Notes: generated from the letters alone by a model not told the origin. DNA of 7,824 bases from a virus (IMGVR_UViG_2671180680_000001); one strand, 5' to 3'. Shown: positions 1-7,824, numbered from the stretch's first letter. Numbers and translations: made by a program.

Positions 1-98
1 AGGGACAGCTGATAGAAACAGAAGCCACTGGAGCACCTCAAAAACACCATCATACACTAAATCAGTAAGTTGGCAGCATCACCTCATTCGTCTGTTCC

Positions 99-605
99 TT
101 AAATCTTCCAGGAAATTTCTGCATTGCCGTCAGCATCACCGGCACCTGTGAATTCAGCGTTGGTCAGCACCACGTTTTTGCCACTGACTGACGTGGACAT
201 GAATCCACCCAGCGGCACTTTGATGGATTCATCAGTGGAGACGACAACGTATACCGGATCGCCTTTTTTGATAGTGCTGGCATCAAAATCAGAACCGAGA
301 TTAACGGTCACGTAGCCACGCTTCATGGCGTCGCCCGGGAAGTTCTTGCCTGTTCCCACCTGGCGAACCATGTCCGGCTGCGACGTGGTCGGATAAGGGC
401 GCACGTAGATCCCCTTCACCTTGTCTGCGGTATCACCATCTGCCAGCGGCACGAAAAAACCGTCATCATCGTATTTACCAGCCAGGCCATAGGCAGCGAA
501 GGCGTTATCGGATTTAAGGACCACCGGTTCGACGGTTAAGTCCTGCGGGCGAGAGACAGCCCCGGCAATGCCAACAGGCATCCGGTACAGAAATACATTA
601 TTCAT
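99..605 (-). CDS. Phage head-module protein of unknown function (168 aa); possible capsid accessory/decoration protein
   Basis: Uninterrupted 168-codon ORF. Its ATG (605..603) lies 3 nt after the stop of the upstream 406-aa gene, so it is translationally coupled within the head operon. Function is inferred only from position after portal/minor-head/scaffold-like genes; no motif recognised. Confidence 0.45.
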   Translation of the reverse strand: MNNVFLYRMPVGIAGAVSRPQDLTVEPVVLKSDNAFAAYGLAGKYDDDGFFVPLADGDTADKVKGIYVRPYPTTSQPDMVRQVGTGKNFPGDAMKRGYVTVNLGSDFDASTIKKGDPVYVVVSTDESIKVPLGGFMSTSVSGKNVVLTNAEFTGAGDADGNAEISWKI

Positions 606-608
606 TTT

Positions 609-1829
609 TTACCCTTTACGGTTTGCCCAGAATTCAGCGTTTTGTTTGTTCAGGGAAGCGATACTGGTCATGCCCATGTTTAGGCGCTGTGCATCGCCGG
701 TGGTGGCGCGGGTGTTTCGCCCTTTGGCAACCTCAGACACGGCATTAAACGCCATGTCGACCGATTGTTTCGGTAATTTGCGGATATCCGCATCACCGAC
801 TATCTGGCGAACCAGCGTTTTGTCAGCAGAAGCCAGAACCTCGCGTTTGAACGCGGTCGGTTTCATCTTACGGCTCAGATCGATACCCGGAACGATAACT
901 TCGGCACGCCAGGCTGAGTCACCAGTAATCGTGGTTTCCTCTTCATCGTCCTCGCCGTCACCGGTCGGATTATCGTCAGGCTTATTATCGTTATCGCCCG
1001 TGGCATTTCTTTCCAGCTTAGCCAGCAGGGCTTTCAGTAATGTTTTGAGGTCATCATCACTGTCGCCGGTTGGATCTCCGCCCATCTCTGGTGCTTTGTC
1101 CGGTAGTGGTTGCTGCGGGGACAGGTTGATGTTGAGATTAACGCCCTGCGGCAAATCCCCCTCATCTCCTGTAACCGATGCGGGAGCCGACTCCACCAGT
1201 TCGTTCATGGTGTCGGCATCTCCTGTCTTGATGGCCGCACGCATGCGGTTCCACCAGTTTTTCTTTTGATTTGCCATTGTGTCTCTGTCTCCAATTGCAC
1301 AACGATTTCCGGCTCTGCCTTTAGGGACAAGAGCCACATGGTTTCCGGTAATATCGACCTGCTCGGCTTTACCTGGCTCGGTCTGCTCGTACTCCGCGTC
1401 ATAGCCGCACGACACTTCGCGCAGGCCATCTTCGATAAGCTGAATGGCGCTTTCGTCTTTGACGATAAGGTCAGCCAGCATCAAATCAGACTGCTCACCC
1501 GTCCCGCGCCGGACATTCTGGAGGTGCCCGACAGCAAGCTCTTTCCAGTTCTCGGGATTTACCAGCCGCACATTCCCGTTTTCATCTTCAGGATGCAGGA
1601 TCGTGATGCTCATCCCTTCGAATGAGGCAAGCGTGGCCGGATGGAATACCTGCTCAGGAGAACGCGTGACGACTATTTCACCGAACTTATCGGGTTTCAG
1701 TTTTGGCAGGTCATCAGCACCATAGAGCTGCTTACCTGTTCGTCCTATCGGCACGTCTTTGCACAGCAACGAGCCGTCAGCCAGGCGGTATCGGGTTTCC
1801 CCGAGCCTGGTCTCAAAAAAGTATTTCAT
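609..1829 (-). CDS. Putative capsid scaffolding / prohead-core protein (406 aa) with acidic low-complexity linker
   Basis: 406-codon ORF tightly packed between the minor-head gene (3-nt gap) and the 168-aa gene (3-nt gap). N-terminal ~190 aa looks globular; the centre is an Asp/Glu/Gly/Thr-rich tract with repeated (P)TGD motifs (SVTGDEGD, DPTGDSDDD, NATGDNDNK, NPTGDGEDDEEE, TITGDS); the C-terminal ~100 aa is basic. Composition and position fit a scaffold/prohead protein; assignment is inference. Confidence 0.5.
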   Translation of the reverse strand: MKYFFETRLGETRYRLADGSLLCKDVPIGRTGKQLYGADDLPKLKPDKFGEIVVTRSPEQVFHPATLASFEGMSITILHPEDENGNVRLVNPENWKELAVGHLQNVRRGTGEQSDLMLADLIVKDESAIQLIEDGLREVSCGYDAEYEQTEPGKAEQVDITGNHVALVPKGRAGNRCAIGDRDTMANQKKNWWNRMRAAIKTGDADTMNELVESAPASVTGDEGDLPQGVNLNINLSPQQPLPDKAPEMGGDPTGDSDDDLKTLLKALLAKLERNATGDNDNKPDDNPTGDGEDDEEETTITGDSAWRAEVIVPGIDLSRKMKPTAFKREVLASADKTLVRQIVGDADIRKLPKQSVDMAFNAVSEVAKGRNTRATTGDAQRLNMGMTSIASLNKQNAEFWANRKG

Positions 1830-1832
1830 GGG

Positions 1833-2615
1833 TTATGCTGCCCTTTTCATTGCGAATGGAACGCGAACAAACACGATCTCTTTATAGCAGCGGCAGTTTG
1901 GCAGCTCGCCCGCGTGGCCGGTCATGCCGTCCAAAGTTGGAGGTGAATCCCAGCGGACGAATTTACCTTTCATGTGATCGTGGGAATCTCGGACATCGCC
2001 ATCATCGGCTGTACGCCAAATATAACCATCCGAGCCAATAGCTATCGCTCGGGCCATATCCAGCGCGCCCGTTGCTCTTCCCAGTTCCGTTCGGGCAATC
2101 AGATCGGCCCTAGACTTAGCAACATCGCCGGTAGATGCAATCTCTTTAGCAAACTGCTCCGCCCGACCACCGGTGACAACAGCCTCTATCGCTTTGTTCT
2201 GGATGTCGTACACCCTGTCTGCGGCCTCGAGAGGCAGAGATTTGATGTACTTGACCTGTTCGGCGATGATGGATTGCATCACCTGGCCCACAGGAGCGCT
2301 TTCCACAAGATTGCGGAGCTCGCGACTGATGTTCTTGCTGTGTTGCCGCCAAACTTTCTCGTTCTGCCGGGTTAGGTCCGCAGTAAAGTTTTCCGCGACC
2401 TTTGTCGCCCAGGGGGTGATGATTTCACTGTAACGCTCCAGCGCCGCAATAATTTCCGTGATACTGTCATTTGAACCATCGTAGCGACCATTTACGATGT
2501 CTCCGACCGCCCTCGCTATCCTGCGTAGGCTGGTTCGATACCGGATTTCCGCCTGACGGCTCCTGCGGTTCGTCATCAGGTTCGCCGATGCCGGGCGGCG
2601 CTTCATCTTCGGCAT
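1833..2615 (-). CDS. Phage minor head / head-morphogenesis protein (Mu gpF / SPP1 gp7-like), 260 aa
   Basis: 260-codon ORF immediately downstream of the portal gene, the usual position for Mu F-like minor head proteins. ATG at 2615..2613 is preceded by GAGGA about 9 nt upstream. Basic N-terminus; ends with a Cys-containing tail (LPNCRCYKE). The 5' end overlaps the portal 3' end by 149 nt in another frame. Family assignment is from recalled similarity and synteny, not a search. Confidence 0.55.
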   Translation of the reverse strand: MPKMKRRPASANLMTNRRSRQAEIRYRTSLRRIARAVGDIVNGRYDGSNDSITEIIAALERYSEIITPWATKVAENFTADLTRQNEKVWRQHSKNISRELRNLVESAPVGQVMQSIIAEQVKYIKSLPLEAADRVYDIQNKAIEAVVTGGRAEQFAKEIASTGDVAKSRADLIARTELGRATGALDMARAIAIGSDGYIWRTADDGDVRDSHDHMKGKFVRWDSPPTLDGMTGHAGELPNCRCYKEIVFVRVPFAMKRAA

Positions 2616-3860
2616 TCTCGATGTCCTCGTCGGTAATGGATGCCCCGATGCCGGTTACGTCAGAATTTTCTCGCAAATCAGTCATAGCGGCTTTCAGTGT
2701 CATCAGACCATCACCCAGCGCCGTACTGATTGCGTTGGTGGTGTTTAACGCCACCGTTGAGCGATCGACATCAGACATTTGCCAGAGCGGGTTAAACTCA
2801 AACGTGAAATCGTCCGGCAGCGGCTTGCCAAGTTCCGAACGATGCATGATGTCCAGTATCCGCCGCACCGGAAGACGTAAACGCCTCTCCTGCAACGAAC
2901 TGATGCGATCGTAATAGTTGGCAAGGTCTGCATCACCGGTAGAAAATCCTTTCGGGGACTGTCCGAACAACCGCACCAGTGGGATACCAACAGCGCCACT
3001 AATCTGTTCTACAAACTGCGAAAGGATGTCATCCAGACCACTGAAGCTGTACTGATGGGTTTCAAACTTATCCCGCGAGTCCATGAGCGTCATGCCTTCA
3101 TTACTCTGGAACTGTCGAATCAGGTCGATATTCTTCAGCAACGCTTCATACGCAGGACCACCAAGTGCGATAAGCTCGCGTAGCTTCTCCACGCTGTAGG
3201 TACGCAAATGCGCCTTGTAGACCAGCTGCGCCGCGCCGACAGTAGCGCTGTCGAACGCGGTAAGACGATCCCAGATACGCTCTACAACCGACATTCCCCA
3301 TTCGTTCTCGGTCATCTTCTGCTGAAATGGCAACGTGACGCCATCAAAGCGAATCAGGCGACTGTGATGAATGCGCCAGGCAGGAATTCCCGTTGCTGTG
3401 GTCACCACATCGTAAAACTCAGGTTTACCCAGGTCCGGCCCCATATCTTTAATGCGGCGGGTCAGTGCCGGGTCGACCGTGCCTACCCCTCAATCATGAT
3501 GAAACCCACCGCGCCGCCGTAGAGGCGCGACCATTTCAGCACGTCATTCAGCGCATCCCAGATTTGCAACTCATCCAGTTGTGATTCGAGAATGCCACGA
3601 TCTTTTGCATCAATTTCCGAAGTGATGCGAATGCCTTTGCGGGTCATATCATCCGGGATAGCATCGACTGCTTCGCCGATGATCTAGGATGAACGATAGG
3701 ACCATTCCACCAGCATGCGGTTACGACTGGTGAAATTAGCCCGGTAGGTGGATGCTGAGTGCTGGTTAGGTGTCTGCATCCCTACGCGGGCAATAAAATT
3801 CTCATAACCATCAGCTGTGGCCTGCACAGTTCGCCGCAGGGCTTGTTTGTTTCGTGCCAT
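2467..3860 (-). pseudogene. Portal protein gene, disrupted (in-frame amber plus 1-nt deletion in a homopolymer)
   Basis: ATG at 3860..3858 overlaps the terminase large-subunit stop (ATGA overlap). Frame A reads MARNKQALRR...VEWSYRSS, then TAG (plus 3684-3686), then IIGEAVDAIPDDMTRKG...GFIMIEG, then TAG (plus 3483-3485). The downstream 325-aa ORF (3444..2467, portal-like) is in a different frame that opens at 3489. Adding one G to the GGGG run (plus-strand CCCC 3486-3489) joins the two frames into a ~464-aa protein (IEG-VGTVDPALTRRIKDMGPDLGKPEF...). Length 1394 nt is not a multiple of 3. Confidence 0.75.
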
Positions 3861-5263
3861 CAGGCCTGTCTCCCCAGCTGTTCCCAGATATCCAGCGATG
3901 TATCGATTGGCGCGAAGGCCATAATGAATGCATCAGCAACGTTTGGTGACGGTATCTCGCGTTTTGCGAGGTCTTTTTTACTTTCGACCATCACACGTCC
4001 GTTACGGTCGAAATCACGATGAGGTGTTGTCAGTTCCAGTTTCAGCTTTTCAAGCAACGGACAACGAGAATCTATGCTGATCAGCTCATCCACAGGATAC
4101 TGTTCTCCGTTGTTAATGGCGTTAAACGTATTTCTGAAACGGTCAGCCACCAGCCACCATGCCTGAGCCTTAAGATTTGCGAAAAAGTCTTTGTTGGGGA
4201 TGCCGTTGTACTCGTCATCTGGCTCATGCACACCAGCACCGGCGTTAAACCTCTGGTAATTCACACGTCGCGCGTATGCGTTCTCGCTCTTCCGGTCAGC
4301 GTTAATTTCAGAGAATTTAGCACCGGCAGACGCACCAACACCGATAGAGTCGTAAACAATATCTGCTTCACGCTCCAGCGCCGCCTGATAAGTACGCTGG
4401 CAGCTCTTCAGTAATTCATCTTCTTTGGCCTTCCATTCGTCGGCCCAGAAAACAACGGATCCGTGACGGTAAACGTTAGCGCACTTATCTGTACCACTGT
4501 CAGCCACGTCAAAGCCAATACGCTTTCTTCCACTGGGTTCGAAATTTAACGTTTTGTGCGCATCCACTGCGGCTTCTATCCAAGACAGTTTGATGATTGC
4601 CGCATCATCATCAGACTCCGGAACGCCCTCATACACATGTTTAAAACCATCCGGATCACGGCGTCGCGCCGCGTCGATAACCTTAAGCATGGTGTCAGAC
4701 AGAAACGGATTTTCGTCATAGTTAATTTTGCGGATGAGAGTGCCTTCGGGCGGATCAACAACGAAGTTGCGCCAGACGAAATCAGTAACAAGTCCGGGGT
4801 TGAATATGAACCAGCATTCCGAACCCTCTTTACGGATCGTTGGCTCCAGAATTTTCCACTGGTATTCCGTCAGTGCGTGGGCTTCTTCCAGCCACAACAC
4901 ATCGATCCCCTCCAGTGACTTAATTTCTTCGATGTTGCGCCATAATCCATAAAAAACAAATTCCGAGCCAGTAACCCGGTTAATGATTTTGTTGTTCAGA
5001 ATACGGAAACGGTGCCGCAGACCAAACCTGTCTATCTGAATTTTGAGCAGGGTATACACCGACTCTTCGATTTTATTCTGGATCTGACGGGCACAACAAA
5101 AACGCAGGGTGTATTTATTCGACAGAAATATGGCAATGCCAGCGGCATCCCATGATTTTGACGATGACCGACCACCATAAAGCACTTTGTTACGTGCCCG
5201 CATAGTCCAGAAACTACGTAAAGCCGGATTCAGCGTCGGTTTGGATGTCAGAGTAGAAGTCAT
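3860..5263 (-). CDS. Terminase large subunit (PBSX/Terminase_3-like ATPase-nuclease)
   Basis: Long uninterrupted ORF with a Walker-A-like P-loop YGGRSSSKSWD near the N-terminus, preceded by an NPALRSFW segment typical of this family, and a long C-terminal nuclease-sized region. Sits directly after the terminase small-subunit gene. Start is ambiguous: in-frame ATGs at 5302, 5290, 5287, 5281, 5263 and 5203; 5263 is chosen (GGAG about 12 nt upstream, 50-nt overlap with TerS). The 5371 start in the ORF track is rejected as a read-through extension. Confidence 0.85.
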   Translation of the reverse strand: MTSTLTSKPTLNPALRSFWTMRARNKVLYGGRSSSKSWDAAGIAIFLSNKYTLRFCCARQIQNKIEESVYTLLKIQIDRFGLRHRFRILNNKIINRVTGSEFVFYGLWRNIEEIKSLEGIDVLWLEEAHALTEYQWKILEPTIRKEGSECWFIFNPGLVTDFVWRNFVVDPPEGTLIRKINYDENPFLSDTMLKVIDAARRRDPDGFKHVYEGVPESDDDAAIIKLSWIEAAVDAHKTLNFEPSGRKRIGFDVADSGTDKCANVYRHGSVVFWADEWKAKEDELLKSCQRTYQAALEREADIVYDSIGVGASAGAKFSEINADRKSENAYARRVNYQRFNAGAGVHEPDDEYNGIPNKDFFANLKAQAWWLVADRFRNTFNAINNGEQYPVDELISIDSRCPLLEKLKLELTTPHRDFDRNGRVMVESKKDLAKREIPSPNVADAFIMAFAPIDTSLDIWEQLGRQA

Positions 5264-5978
5264 TGAGGTCACGCTCTCCATTGCCATCATCAATACCTGC
5301 ATCACGGCGAAGACGATCAGCCTCCAGAGACACCTTATCAGTGGCGGCCTTGCGGTAGGCTGTATCAGCAAATATTTTTCCTACCGTCGCAAGCGTGCCA
5401 ACGATGGACTCAATACGAACTGTATTGCGCATCATTGCTTTCTCGGCGGCGCTGATATTTTCAATCAGCATCTTCCTTTCCTGGTCCCCATTAGCATCTT
5501 CCAGCGACACCAACCACCGACCAATATTCTCTGCAGCGACAAGGTTGTTAGCACGAAGGCGAAATAATTCGTCCTCGAGCGTCAACGCTTTAGCGTCCTC
5601 TATCACCTCATCTTTGAGCAGAAGGCGACGGGCATAACCACCGTGTTTTAATGCCTGCTGGTTACCGGGTTGGAATGGGTTAGTCGGGGGATCGGTACGC
5701 ATTCCGCGTATCGGTTTCGTATCCGGTGTAGATTCTGTTTTTAGTTGCGTACTTTTTTGTGTAAGGCCAGTAATGGCAGGCTTTCTGCTGGTACGCACTT
5801 TCCTTTTTTGCGTACCATTTTTGCAAACCTGCGTACCGCCACTGCGTGCCCAACCAAGCTTTTTGGCCCTCTTCCTGATAGCCCCTTCTGTAACGCCGTA
5901 TTTCTCGCCTATATCACGGAGGCTAAGGACTCCGGCCCGGTATGCCGATTCGATGGCCTCCCAGTCCGGTTTTGCCAT
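5214..5978 (-). CDS. Terminase small subunit (N-terminal HTH DNA-binding domain)
   Basis: 254-codon ORF immediately upstream of TerL. ATG 5978..5976 is preceded by AGGAAG about 8 nt upstream. N-terminus (LSLRDIGEKYGVTEGAIRKRAKKLGW) looks like a helix-turn-helix, followed by a basic low-complexity linker (GTQ/K/R repeats) and a helical C-terminal region, the usual TerS architecture. Confidence 0.65.
   Translation of the reverse strand: MAKPDWEAIESAYRAGVLSLRDIGEKYGVTEGAIRKRAKKLGWARSGGTQVCKNGTQKRKVRTSRKPAITGLTQKSTQLKTESTPDTKPIRGMRTDPPTNPFQPGNQQALKHGGYARRLLLKDEVIEDAKALTLEDELFRLRANNLVAAENIGRWLVSLEDANGDQERKMLIENISAAEKAMMRNTVRIESIVGTLATVGKIFADTAYRKAATDKVSLEADRLRRDAGIDDGNGERDLNDFYSDIQTDAESGFT
5745..5850. 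repeat. Cluster of GGTACGCA(A/G)-type 8-9-mers with flanking A/T tracts inside the TerS ORF; candidate pac / terminase recognition elements
   Basis: Plus-strand copies: TTGCGTACT 5745-5753, TTGCGTACC 5808-5816, CTGCGTACC 5829-5837, degenerate CTGCGTGCC 5842-5850, and an inverted copy GGTACGCAC 5790-5798. Spacings of 63 and 21 bp between same-orientation copies; T6 runs at 5753-5758 and 5804-5809. The repeats lie in the TerS linker region and encode GTQ/KVRT repeats. Confidence 0.4.
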
Positions 5979-6062
5979 GATTATGCTTCCTGTGATTTAC
6001 TGTTATCGCTGCCTGTCACAATAGGTTGCTTTAATTCTTCCTCATCACTCACTCCTGCGACG

Positions 6063-6088
6063 CTCCGTGGCAGGGCCCCCCACAGGAG
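6063..6088. other. Imperfect inverted repeat / hairpin with C-rich loop in the TerS-DedA divergent intergenic region
   Basis: CTCCGTGG (6063-6070), 9-nt loop cagggcccc, then CCAC-A-GGAG (6080-6088): 8 bp of pairing with one bulged A. No U-tract on either strand, so not a canonical intrinsic terminator. Confidence 0.3.
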
Positions 6089-6092
6089 TACC

Positions 6093-6123
6093 TTGTAAAT
6101 GTAAGGTGTTTAAGCCTAAATTA
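6093..6123 (+). promoter_or_regulatory. Weak candidate sigma70-like promoter for the DedA-like gene
   Basis: TTGTAA (6093-6098), 19-bp spacer, TAAATT (6118-6123); each hexamer matches consensus at 4 of 6 positions, about 50 nt upstream of the ATG at 6176. Poor match; listed only because the plus-strand gene needs its own promoter. Confidence 0.15.
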
Positions 6124-6175
6124 AGTCGTATCACGGTTAAATAGCAAAGAAAAATTCACAGAAGGAAAGACATTG

Positions 6176-6685
6176 ATGGAGTGGATAAATGCTTTGATGA
6201 ACTATTTTGTACTTCATCCATATCGCCTATGGGGGCTTCTTTTTATAATAGCGTTCACAAAATCCACTTTACTCATTTCGGCGATATTGCCACCAGCATC
6301 AATTATGATGGCCACTGTAATTACAGTCAGCAAGACGACTCTTTCACCATGGGAAGCTGGAATCACGGTCATGAGTGGCGCATGGTGCGGTACTATCGTT
6401 AATTACCATCTTGGTATAATAATTGGGCATATCCCTCAACTTGCATGTATAATATCAAGCCGTTCCAATACAATAGAACGGGTTCGCCTTCAGTTGCAAA
6501 ATAACTCTGTGTCAATACTTTTCACTTCGCGCTTTATCGCCGTGCTGCGTTATATTGCTCCTTTGGTGGCAGGAATGTTGCAACTTCATCCAGTGAAAGT
6601 GTATACAGTGAGTCTGATTTCAGCTGCTAGCTGGTCAGCACTTTATGTTGGTAGTTTTAGCTTCGTGTTGCCTTTTTTTAGCTAA
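6176..6685 (+). CDS. DedA/YqaA-family (VTT-domain-like) small inner-membrane protein; moron-like cargo gene
   Basis: 169-codon ORF from ATG 6176 (GAAGGA SD 6161-6166; the in-frame TTG at 6173 is less likely). Very hydrophobic, with about four predicted TM segments. Recalled resemblance to E. coli YqaA / DedA family: ILPPASIMMATV, SPWEAGITVMSGAWCGTIVNYHLG, and FTSRFIAVLRYIAPLVAGM resembling the family's R-x-(I/V)-P-x-x-G signature. Clearly more AT-rich than flanking phage genes and transcribed opposite to the late operon. Confidence 0.65.
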   Translation: MEWINALMNYFVLHPYRLWGLLFIIAFTKSTLLISAILPPASIMMATVITVSKTTLSPWEAGITVMSGAWCGTIVNYHLGIIIGHIPQLACIISSRSNTIERVRLQLQNNSVSILFTSRFIAVLRYIAPLVAGMLQLHPVKVYTVSLISAASWSALYVGSFSFVLPFFS

Positions 6686-6773
6686 ACTGCCCATAAAAAG
6701 CTCTTGCGAATCCAGCTTCCCCCATTCCTCTGACAACAGAATCTGATTTGAAGGATAATGAGTAAAATTACCG

Positions 6774-7244
6774 CTACCCCCCAAGGCATTGGATCCTGAT
6801 GTACTCCTGAAGCATTCTCAATGCTGTCTGGTCGCTGATGATTCCGTCCCGGATACCGAGAACGTTTCGTCCAGCAACTGGAGAGAGTTCGACGGTGGCA
6901 TCATTGCCCATGCCGGAGGCGCTGGAGGTTTCGGCTGAGGATGGCACAGGGCATTTTCCTTTGACGAGCACCCGACCACCATTATCAAGCTTGCGCCGAA
7001 GAGCATCATTTTCAGCTTTCGCATCAGCTAACTCCTTCGTGTATTTAGCATCGAGTGCATCAGCATCACGCTGGCGCTGCTGCATGTCAGTAATGGTTGC
7101 GTTCGCCAGCTTCAGTTCTCTTGCGTTTTTGTCGCGCTGCTCTTTGTAGGTAATGGCGTTATCACGGTAATGATTAACAGCCCATGACAGGCGGACGATG
7201 ATGCAGATAACCAGAGCGGAGATAATCGCGGTGACTCTGCTCAT
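6774..7244 (-). CDS. Rz: Rz i-spanin (inner-membrane spanin subunit)
   Basis: Translation [77 protein letters not shown] matches recalled lambda Rz over about the first 85 residues; the C-terminal half is divergent but retains the conserved Cys. ATG 7244..7242 overlaps the R stop (ATGA). The GTG at 7256 in the ORF track is probably not the start. Confidence 0.88.
6818..7024 (-). CDS. Rz1: Rz1 o-spanin (outer-membrane lipoprotein), embedded in the +1 frame of Rz
   Basis: 68-codon ORF entirely inside Rz. MRKLKMML...LIMVVGC has a lipobox-like VVGC followed by the proline-rich KPPAPPAW motif, matching recalled lambda Rz1 (MLKLKMML...VVVGC...KPPPPPAW). AAGGAG SD lies 7 nt upstream of ATG 7024. 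Confidence 0.8.
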
Positions 7245-7738
7245 TGCTGCCCCCACAAACAGACTTCACGCTCAATCTCACGACGGGTCATCAGCCCTTT
7301 CCATTGCTTACCGCCAGCATATGTCCAGCGACATAGCTGGTCACATGCGCCTTTGATATAGCCCTGGTTTATTTTGCGAAGAAGCGTCGATGTTCTGAAA
7401 TTGCCAGCGCCCACGTTGTAAACGAACGAGTAAAGAGCGCCGCGCGTTGTTTCCGGTATATCGACTTTGATGTACGGGTTAATTTGTCTGGCGACAGTGG
7501 CAAGGTCTTTATTCAGGAGAGCTTTGCATTCTGCTTCGGTATACGTTTTACCAGGCATGATGTCTTTTCCGGTGTGTCCGTGACATACAGTCCATACACC
7601 AATGATATCTTTGTATAGTATGTAGCTGACACCTTCCAGACCATCGTTACCACCTGGGCCAGTGATTAACACAGATGCTATAGCAACAGCCCCGCCACCA
7701 ATAGCAACTGCAACAGCCTTGCGTAATGATGGCGACAT
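7241..7738 (-). CDS. R: SAR endolysin (P21 R-type lysozyme with N-terminal signal-arrest-release domain)
   Basis: 165-aa product. N-terminal Gly/Ala-rich weakly hydrophobic SAR segment ([23 protein letters not shown]) followed by lysozyme core ([10 protein letters not shown]...[10 protein letters not shown]...[19 protein letters not shown]); near-identical to P21 R as I recall it. SD GAGGTGA precedes ATG 7738..7736, which overlaps the upstream ORF stop (TAATG). Confidence 0.9.
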
Positions 7739-7824
7739 TATTCACCTCTCGCAGCCTTACTAGACTGGCCCCCTGAATCTCCAGACAACCAGTATCACTT
7801 AAATAAGTGATAGTCTTAATACTA
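7738..7824 (-). CDS. 3' end of putative (pin)holin gene, partial at window edge, apparently frameshifted
   Basis: The frame ending in TAA overlapping the R start codon (TAATG) encodes ...[10 protein letters not shown], resembling the recalled C-terminus of S21 pinholin (...RRKAARGE), but is closed by TGA only 18 codons upstream. The only frame open to the window edge encodes ...[20 protein letters not shown]... (TYL also fits S21) and runs into R. One extra G in the GGGGG run (plus-strand CCCCC 7769-7773) would join them as ...[25 protein letters not shown]. Confidence 0.3.

Follow-up and report, generated by a model that had tools for sequence, protein, structure and literature searches.

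Why is the portal gene on this stretch of Shigella sonnei DNA no longer a single reading frame, and by what events did it come apart? The window, meaning the whole stretch of DNA that was analysed, is the entire 7,824-bp draft contig CWUQ01000179.1 (assembly GCA_001258355.1) of S. sonnei. Translation on its minus strand from the ATG at 3860 gives 58 residues before a TAG at 3684-3686, and after 66 further codons in the same frame there is another TAG at 3483-3485. Past the junction of a deletion just downstream of it, some 338 codons lie in another frame, among them those of a 325-aa ORF at 2467-3444 (ATG at 3444) whose product is deposited with the source record as CSG72728.1, 'putative bacteriophage protein [Shigella sonnei]'. 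The first-pass annotation recognized a portal gene with an amber at codon 59, several independent inactivating lesions and roughly 340 out-of-frame codons, and in all of this it has stood up. It also derived the second TAG and the change of frame from loss of one nucleotide in a G/C homopolymer, and on that point the comparisons described here lead elsewhere.

The portal gene and the borders of its prophage

All phage genes of the window are on the minus strand, and a DedA / VTT-domain moron (6173-6685), which is context outside the lesion, is on the plus strand. Read from high coordinates to low, the window begins with the terminal 64 nt of IS2 (7761-7824), identical to the end of an annotated IS2 in E. 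coli FDAARGOS_943, adjoined by the last 22 nt of a class II holin gene (7739-7760) whose remainder has been split off by the IS2. There follow an intact RrrD-like lysozyme gene (7241-7738), an Rz-type spanin gene (6774-7244) with an Rz1 lipoprotein ORF embedded at 6818-7024 (a PF06085 Rz1 match was called at the corresponding ORF in the S. sonnei locus L024) and, beyond the moron, an intact gene in the small-terminase position for a 254-aa protein without a Pfam match (5214-5978). The gene for the large terminase subunit, TerL (3860-5263), is intact with 467 aa, and its stop codon overlaps the portal ATG by 1 nt as TGATG, rather than by the ATGA initially reported. The portal pseudogene itself (2467-3860) has 1,394 nt compared with 1,467 nt (488 codons) in intact relatives, and its 3′ end overlaps by 110 nt an intact Mu F-like head morphogenesis gene (1833-2576). 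Intact genes for a DUF2213 head protein (609-1829) and a capsid cement or minor capsid protein (99-605) come next, then only the first four bases, ATGA, of a DUF2184 gene (84-87), and finally the terminal 83 nt of IS1 (1-83), identical to the end of the IS1A annotated in FDAARGOS_943. IS1 ORFs are also present at the counterpart of this last position in complete S. sonnei genomes. The contig evidently breaks at the IS1 and IS2 repeats as a product of short-read assembly.

Homology of the window to intact prophages is confined to positions 84-7760, with IS1 abutting the start codon of the DUF2184 gene, which is putatively the major capsid gene, given its family and position. The 20-kb locus of S. 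sonnei 53G (HE616528.1, 780,385-800,561) has, past IS1, genes whose Pfam domains are those of a lactonase, a LysR-type regulator and the aconitase family, and nothing in the approximately 5.6 kb read past IS1 in that genome is homologous to the capsid or tail region of the intact prophage. At the other border IS2 is inserted in the 3′ end of the holin gene, about 20 nt before its stop codon, and in 53G it is flanked by a 5-bp target duplication and so is a simple insertion into that gene; more IS elements are present upstream of IS2 in complete S. sonnei genomes. With capsid and tail genes gone on the IS1 side and the holin gene split by IS2, the prophage would be unable to form particles whatever the state of its portal, and the initial view, in which the portal was the sole block and the lysis and terminase genes were intact, is misleading. 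IS-driven pseudogenization is a recognized feature of Shigella genomes (PMC8072062).

That the gene is a portal gene is supported from several sides. In a profile search the repaired 488-aa sequence matches PF06381 (Phage_portal_3, formerly DUF1073) with an E value of 3.3e-106 and 355 bits, for which the cut-off is 33.8 bits, and the match covers residues 55-402 and profile positions 7-355 of 357; for the 54-aa and 325-aa fragments, PF06381 matches were precomputed for both. Among solved structures the repaired protein matches the portal of phage Pam3 (8HDS, E value 2.2e-37, with homology over residues 15-413) and gp19 of E217 (8FVH, E value 1e-14, residues 58-367), as well as the portal proteins 9JLF and 9L01, and W59 is aligned with a conserved tryptophan of the Pam3 portal. 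The portals of Pam3 and E217 are functional dodecamers of Pseudomonas phages, in contrast to the window copy which is truncated at residue 58; the neighboring genes of the window also match head proteins of the Pam3/E217/XM1 type. The order TerL, portal, Mu F, DUF2213 and cement is found in the window and in all its relatives. Some RefSeq records carry the label 'anti-CBASS protein Acb1 family', which was rejected since the profile, the homologs of solved structure and the gene position all indicate a portal. The full-length ORF is interrupted, by stops at codon 59 and codon 126 and by a 73-nt deletion that shifts the frame, and, judged by sequence, the gene at 2467-3860 belongs to the PF06381 portal family as a disrupted member.

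Intact versions are available at several distances. Closest is WP_000113499.1, a 'DUF1073 domain-containing protein' of E. coli FDAARGOS_944, FDAARGOS_943 and VL40, where the surrounding DNA is 99.8% identical and the prophage genes are in the same order as in the window (lysozyme, Rz, DedA, TerS-like, TerL, portal, Mu F, DUF2213, cement). Unlike the window copy, its gene is an uninterrupted 488 codons, with TGG at codon 59, CAG at codon 126, GCA at codon 308 and the 73 nt kept. The E. coli phages vB_EcoM-689R2, -611R5, -683R1 and -606R2 have approximately 98% nucleotide identity with TerL adjoining, and Salmonella phage SEN34 (KT630649 / NC_028699) has 85% nucleotide identity with the gene next to TerL and annotated as a putative portal protein; in the SEN34 and vB_EcoM records the nucleotide alignment runs over essentially the whole gene and, unlike in the window, the 73 nt are retained. 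Intact homologs are thus single 488-codon ORFs, which replaces the 464 aa first estimated for the repaired protein and does away with the thought that intact portals of this kind might end near residue 58.

Amber codons and a deletion

Reference for the lesions was provided by intact prophages at 99.8% identity (E. coli FDAARGOS_944, FDAARGOS_943 and VL40), together with a 97.9% relative, P4. Compared with its closest relatives the portal gene has exactly four differences, three of them substitutions. W59* is a TGG to TAG change at 3684-3686 (coding-strand G to A at 3685), Q126* a CAG to TAG change at 3483-3485 (coding-strand C to T at 3485) and A308V an S. sonnei-specific missense change of GCA to GTA (coding-strand C to T at 3011), so that all three are G:C to A:T. 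The fourth is the 73-nt gap. Alignment to intact homologs confirms that the first amber was originally TGG, as had been suggested: this is the codon in 108 of 112 homologous IMG/VR loci, the other 4 having TAG. At codon 126, 113 of 117 loci have CAG and 4 have TAG; at codon 308 there are 112 with GCN and 4 with GTA. The four loci with TAG are sequences identical to S. sonnei 53G. No internal stop is present in 83 of the 88 IMG/VR loci that span the full gene. Neither amber was found in any of 5,426 complete E. coli genomes, where the best matches to short queries have exactly one mismatch per site. A 60-mer across the W59* site has no 100% match among the complete E. coli genomes, and of the 42 nt flanking Q126*, 41 are matched in 270 E. 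coli genomes with none at 100%.

The situation within S. sonnei is very different. The 58-aa and 54-aa fragments that the ambers define recur in about 2,700 index blocks and at least 1,000 contigs, complete chromosomes included, and all S. sonnei genomes that were read agree in both ambers and in A308V. Of twenty S. sonnei loci (L005-L024), ten match window positions 84-7760 exactly apart from the 73-nt gap, and the remaining ten have one substitution and/or a few 1-nt indels, all away from the lesion sites. The ten exact matches, in which the ambers, A308V and the IS1 and IS2 borders are all the same as in the window, are 53G (HE616528.1, lineage II), 75/02 (CP019689, lineage III, IIIc) and eight other loci, with an interval of 7,750 bp between IS2 and IS1. 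These genomes retain nucleotides 383-455 of the gene and have its three pieces in one frame, in contrast to the window whose third piece is 325 aa in another frame. In published S. sonnei genomes the gene is correspondingly annotated in three pieces (58, 54 and 360 aa), each a 'putative bacteriophage protein' (the Ss046 protein is Q3Z426), and the third of these begins 7 nt past the second TAG with the frame unchanged. In its standard form the S. sonnei allele thus keeps all 1,467 nt, carries two in-frame ambers and A308V, and has no frameshift. As the ambers are identical across independent S. sonnei assemblies and missing from the E. coli and IMG/VR homologs, they are genuine mutations of the lineage instead of sequencing errors, and by the genomes compared W59*, Q126* and A308V are real and fixed in the S. 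sonnei lineage. The alternative of sequencing error, allowed for from the outset, is refuted for both ambers by their recurrence in at least 1,000 contigs and may apply now to the 73-nt deletion only.

The second TAG is accordingly real, but it was not made by a shift of frame: it is codon 126 of the original frame, altered from CAG. Nor is the adjacent CCCC (3486-3489, GGGG on the coding strand) one base short, as had been supposed. Its length is that of the wild type, with GAGGGG equal in two intact homologs (L001 and L002), and the window reads ATTGAGGGGTAGGCAC where the intact sequence is ATTGAGGGGCAGGCAC. With the second TAG in the original frame and the GGGG run normal, a frame shift is not the source of the TAG, nor is the homopolymer the source of the shift. 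What was read as one single-nucleotide deletion is instead two separate events, the CAG to TAG substitution and a deletion of 73 nt. The deletion junction, GGCAC|GGTCG, lies between 3479 and 3478, four bases downstream of the second TAG and 6 nt from the C to T change at 3485, and what is missing is gene nucleotides 383-455, both ends falling on the second base of a codon (128 and 152), with 25 codons hit. All the full-length E. coli matches listed cover 1,574 nt where the window query has 1,501, a difference of 73 nt. Since 73 is 3 x 24 + 1, one added G happens to rejoin the frames on paper.

How the 73 nt were lost is not indicated by the sequence around them. Microhomology is lacking at the deletion junction, the breakpoints do not fit an imperfect repeat nearby (GGCAC...TGACCC), and shuffled sequence folds as well as the region of the deletion does (z 0.28). 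A palindrome of 6-7 bp adjoins the right breakpoint and explains nothing. A single complex event that yielded both the change at 3485 and the deletion, or an error at a contig end, was considered for the pair and rejected, as the T is in all S. sonnei without the deletion.

The deletion, in contrast to the ambers, is confined to a single contig. In a search of assembly collections the 325-aa deletion product occurs on 1 contig only, the junction is not spanned by any of the 5,426 complete E. coli genomes, and a 31-mer across it was not found in GTDB representative genomes, JGI metagenomes or IMG/VR. It may be a variant private to the isolate, or else the deposited assembly is flawed. If it were an artefact of the draft assembly, the isolate would carry the standard allele with two ambers and no frameshift, and we give this somewhat less than an even chance. 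Pointing to it are the single contig set against the at least 1,000 with the undeleted allele, the absence of the junction from all other collections scanned, and the lack of junction microhomology which is unusual for a slippage deletion. A further weak hint is that the 325-aa product is listed from NCBI only, while the S. sonnei variants P0014 and P0042, each from a single isolate, are in both NCBI and the independent Logan assemblies; against that, the run might simply be missing from the Logan collection. A false join by an overlap-based assembler would, however, itself require sequence common to both sides, which is lacking here, the contig is base-perfect with respect to 53G outside the gap, and it is entirely plausible for a pseudogene to have a deletion that is private and neutral.

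Another Shigella has the same portal gene, likewise dead. The S. dysenteriae Sd197 copy (ABB62211.1) is represented in IMG/VR by the locus L136, which is 100% identical to the Sd197 fragment and where the end of an IS1 truncates the portal at gene nucleotide 307/308. As both species have a 360-aa fragment starting at M129, a Q126* common to S. dysenteriae and S. sonnei was a candidate, but it was discarded on finding that codon 126 of L136 is CAG. Codon 308 there is Ala, and there are four other missense changes. The truncation by IS1 and the CAG at codon 126 show the lesions of the two species to be independent.

Probable decay of a remnant and its alternatives

The gene is very probably a non-functional portal relic in an IS-bounded 7.7-kb prophage remnant of S. 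sonnei. IS1 has taken the place of the major capsid gene and all that lay downstream, whether by removal or by displacement, and IS2 has split the holin gene. Three G:C to A:T transitions have become fixed in the S. sonnei clone, most simply under relaxed selection on the remnant, the lesions presumably piling up without selection once particle production was impossible. The 73-nt loss, which shifts the frame, would have appeared later and be private to the isolate or to its assembly. As translation would end at residue 58, too early for the PF06381 domain to be built, the allele should be null; presumably no full-length portal is made and the downstream pieces are without function.

Two accounts in which the prophage would be in better condition, or the gene still expressed, have to be set against decay. 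The original proposal was of an otherwise competent prophage with one amber and with a second TAG produced by loss of 1 nt from the G/C homopolymer, and it draws on the fact that one G inserted in GGGG joins both frames on paper. It is refuted by the alignments, however, and extremely improbable, given that the run is equal in intact homologs, that the TAG is an in-frame CAG to TAG substitution with 73 nt missing just downstream, that S. sonnei genomes without the deletion still carry this TAG, and that capsid and tail genes are gone and the holin gene is split. Programmed recoding, with the ambers read through or suppressed, the frame change programmed and a functional portal still made, might be entertained as both stops are UAG. 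UAG is the stop codon most prone to readthrough. But the stops are not conserved, all homologs other than those of S. sonnei having sense codons at these positions; a tRNA gene that would be a suppressor candidate was sought in the window and none found; the frame change is a deletion of 73 nt that affects 25 codons, and not a slippery site; and the capsid genes with which a portal would be partnered are absent. Stops that are not conserved, no tRNA gene in the window and a frame change of this kind together exclude recoding for practical purposes, and hardly any likelihood is left to it.

A different type of alternative accepts that the gene is dead and asks if its death was advantageous. When P4 is used as outgroup, window positions 84-5980 (5.9 kb) contain no S. 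sonnei-derived substitution other than the three in the portal gene, of which two are nonsense and none is synonymous. Of the substitutions possible in the gene 3.6% create a stop, and of the possible G:C to A:T changes 6.2% do so. The local probability, approximately 0.015 for placement multiplied by 0.004-0.011 for type, is roughly 1e-4, a post hoc figure for a window that was selected on account of these lesions. The local pattern is not what simple neutral decay predicts and, with the test being post hoc, is mildly curious; on a rough estimate, two nonsense changes in some dead gene genome-wide are not very surprising. Inactivation of the portal could have been positively selected in S. 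sonnei if the portal protein of the remnant were toxic, or if it triggered a portal-sensing defense of the Avs4 type; an Avs4-type defense system is said, in work of Gao et al. from 2022, to sense portal proteins. The fall of all three lineage-specific substitutions of the 5.9 kb in the portal gene, and the second Shigella lineage in which the same portal was truncated independently by IS1, are in its favor, and selection for portal loss, if true, would explain both. Several considerations nevertheless make such selection unlikely. The statistic was obtained after the fact on a window picked for its lesions, one stop is enough, which leaves the second stop and the deletion necessarily neutral, IS1 is ubiquitous in S. 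dysenteriae, and internal stops are missing from 83 of the 88 full-gene IMG/VR copies. Decay under relaxed selection continues to be the preferred account.

The double-amber portal allele is already present in published S. sonnei genomes and is a case of ordinary, known gene decay. Its biological weight is small, being that of one more decayed prophage gene in an IS-rich pathogen with a degrading genome. From the perspective of reading frames there is a lesson in it, that an apparent 1-nt homopolymer slip can be a larger deletion, of length 1 modulo 3, beside an independent nonsense substitution. Among the E. coli and Shigella prophage carriers examined here, the two ambers together with A308V could serve to mark S. 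sonnei.

Substitutions and naming of the portal gene

With the 97.9%-identical E. coli prophage P4 as outgroup, only three substitutions can be assigned to the S. sonnei lineage across the 5.9 kb of window positions 84-5980, and all of them fall in the portal gene (2467-3860, minus strand). Two are nonsense (W59* and Q126*), one is missense (A308V) and none is synonymous, and in all three cases the change is from G:C to A:T. Such a pattern is locally improbable under neutral decay, on a test that was post hoc.

As annotated in relatives, the 3′ end of the portal gene and the start of the Mu F-like gene share 110 nt (2467-2576) in different frames, an overlap that is unusually long and may have its source in a mis-called Mu F start. 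In some E. coli RefSeq records (for example NZ_CP148474.1 and NZ_CP029371.1) the portal gene goes under the name ‘anti-CBASS protein Acb1 family protein’, a label that is probably misleading because profile evidence and that from solved structures indicate a portal.

Contig ends and the lysis-side segment

The window spans its draft contig entirely, and the insertion sequence copies at its ends are the break points: the terminal 83 nt of an IS1 at 1-83 and the terminal 64 nt of an IS2 at 7761-7824. In complete S. sonnei genomes chromosomal genes come after the IS1, and the holin gene is interrupted by a simple IS2 insertion.

Between Rz and the gene at the small-terminase position, and on the opposite (plus) strand, a DedA/VTT-domain gene (6173-6685) is placed in the manner of a moron. 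When 5,426 complete genomes from E. coli are compared, only three show coverage of at least 80% of the window, with the DedA-to-lysozyme part (5981-7760) included; in most other relatives the match is confined to 84-5980. Within the Rz gene, in another frame of the minus strand, is a 68-aa ORF (6818-7024) whose lipoprotein-type signal and proline-rich body fit the pattern expected of an embedded Rz1, and in one S. sonnei locus PF06085 (Rz1) is called at the matching position.

Portal genes and prophage decay in other copies

The first-pass annotation proposed a 1-nt deletion in a G/C homopolymer of the window's portal gene, and lesions of this type occur in the portal homolog of another IMG/VR locus, L068: nine 1-nt deletions of G or C, dispersed along the gene and suggestive of homopolymer sequencing error in that assembly. 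A further IMG/VR locus (L136:4061-5249) is 100% identical to S. dysenteriae Sd197 ABB62211.1. Its copy of the portal gene is cut off by an IS1 end at gene nt 307/308, retains CAG at codon 126 and carries four substitutions, all missense; this S. dysenteriae-type portal was inactivated independently, in a separate Shigella lineage. The prophage of E. coli FDAARGOS_943 is a 99.8%-identical sister with an intact portal gene; there TerL carries an IS2 insertion and the Mu F-like gene has an internal stop. It represents decay of the same prophage in a different host, through other lesions.
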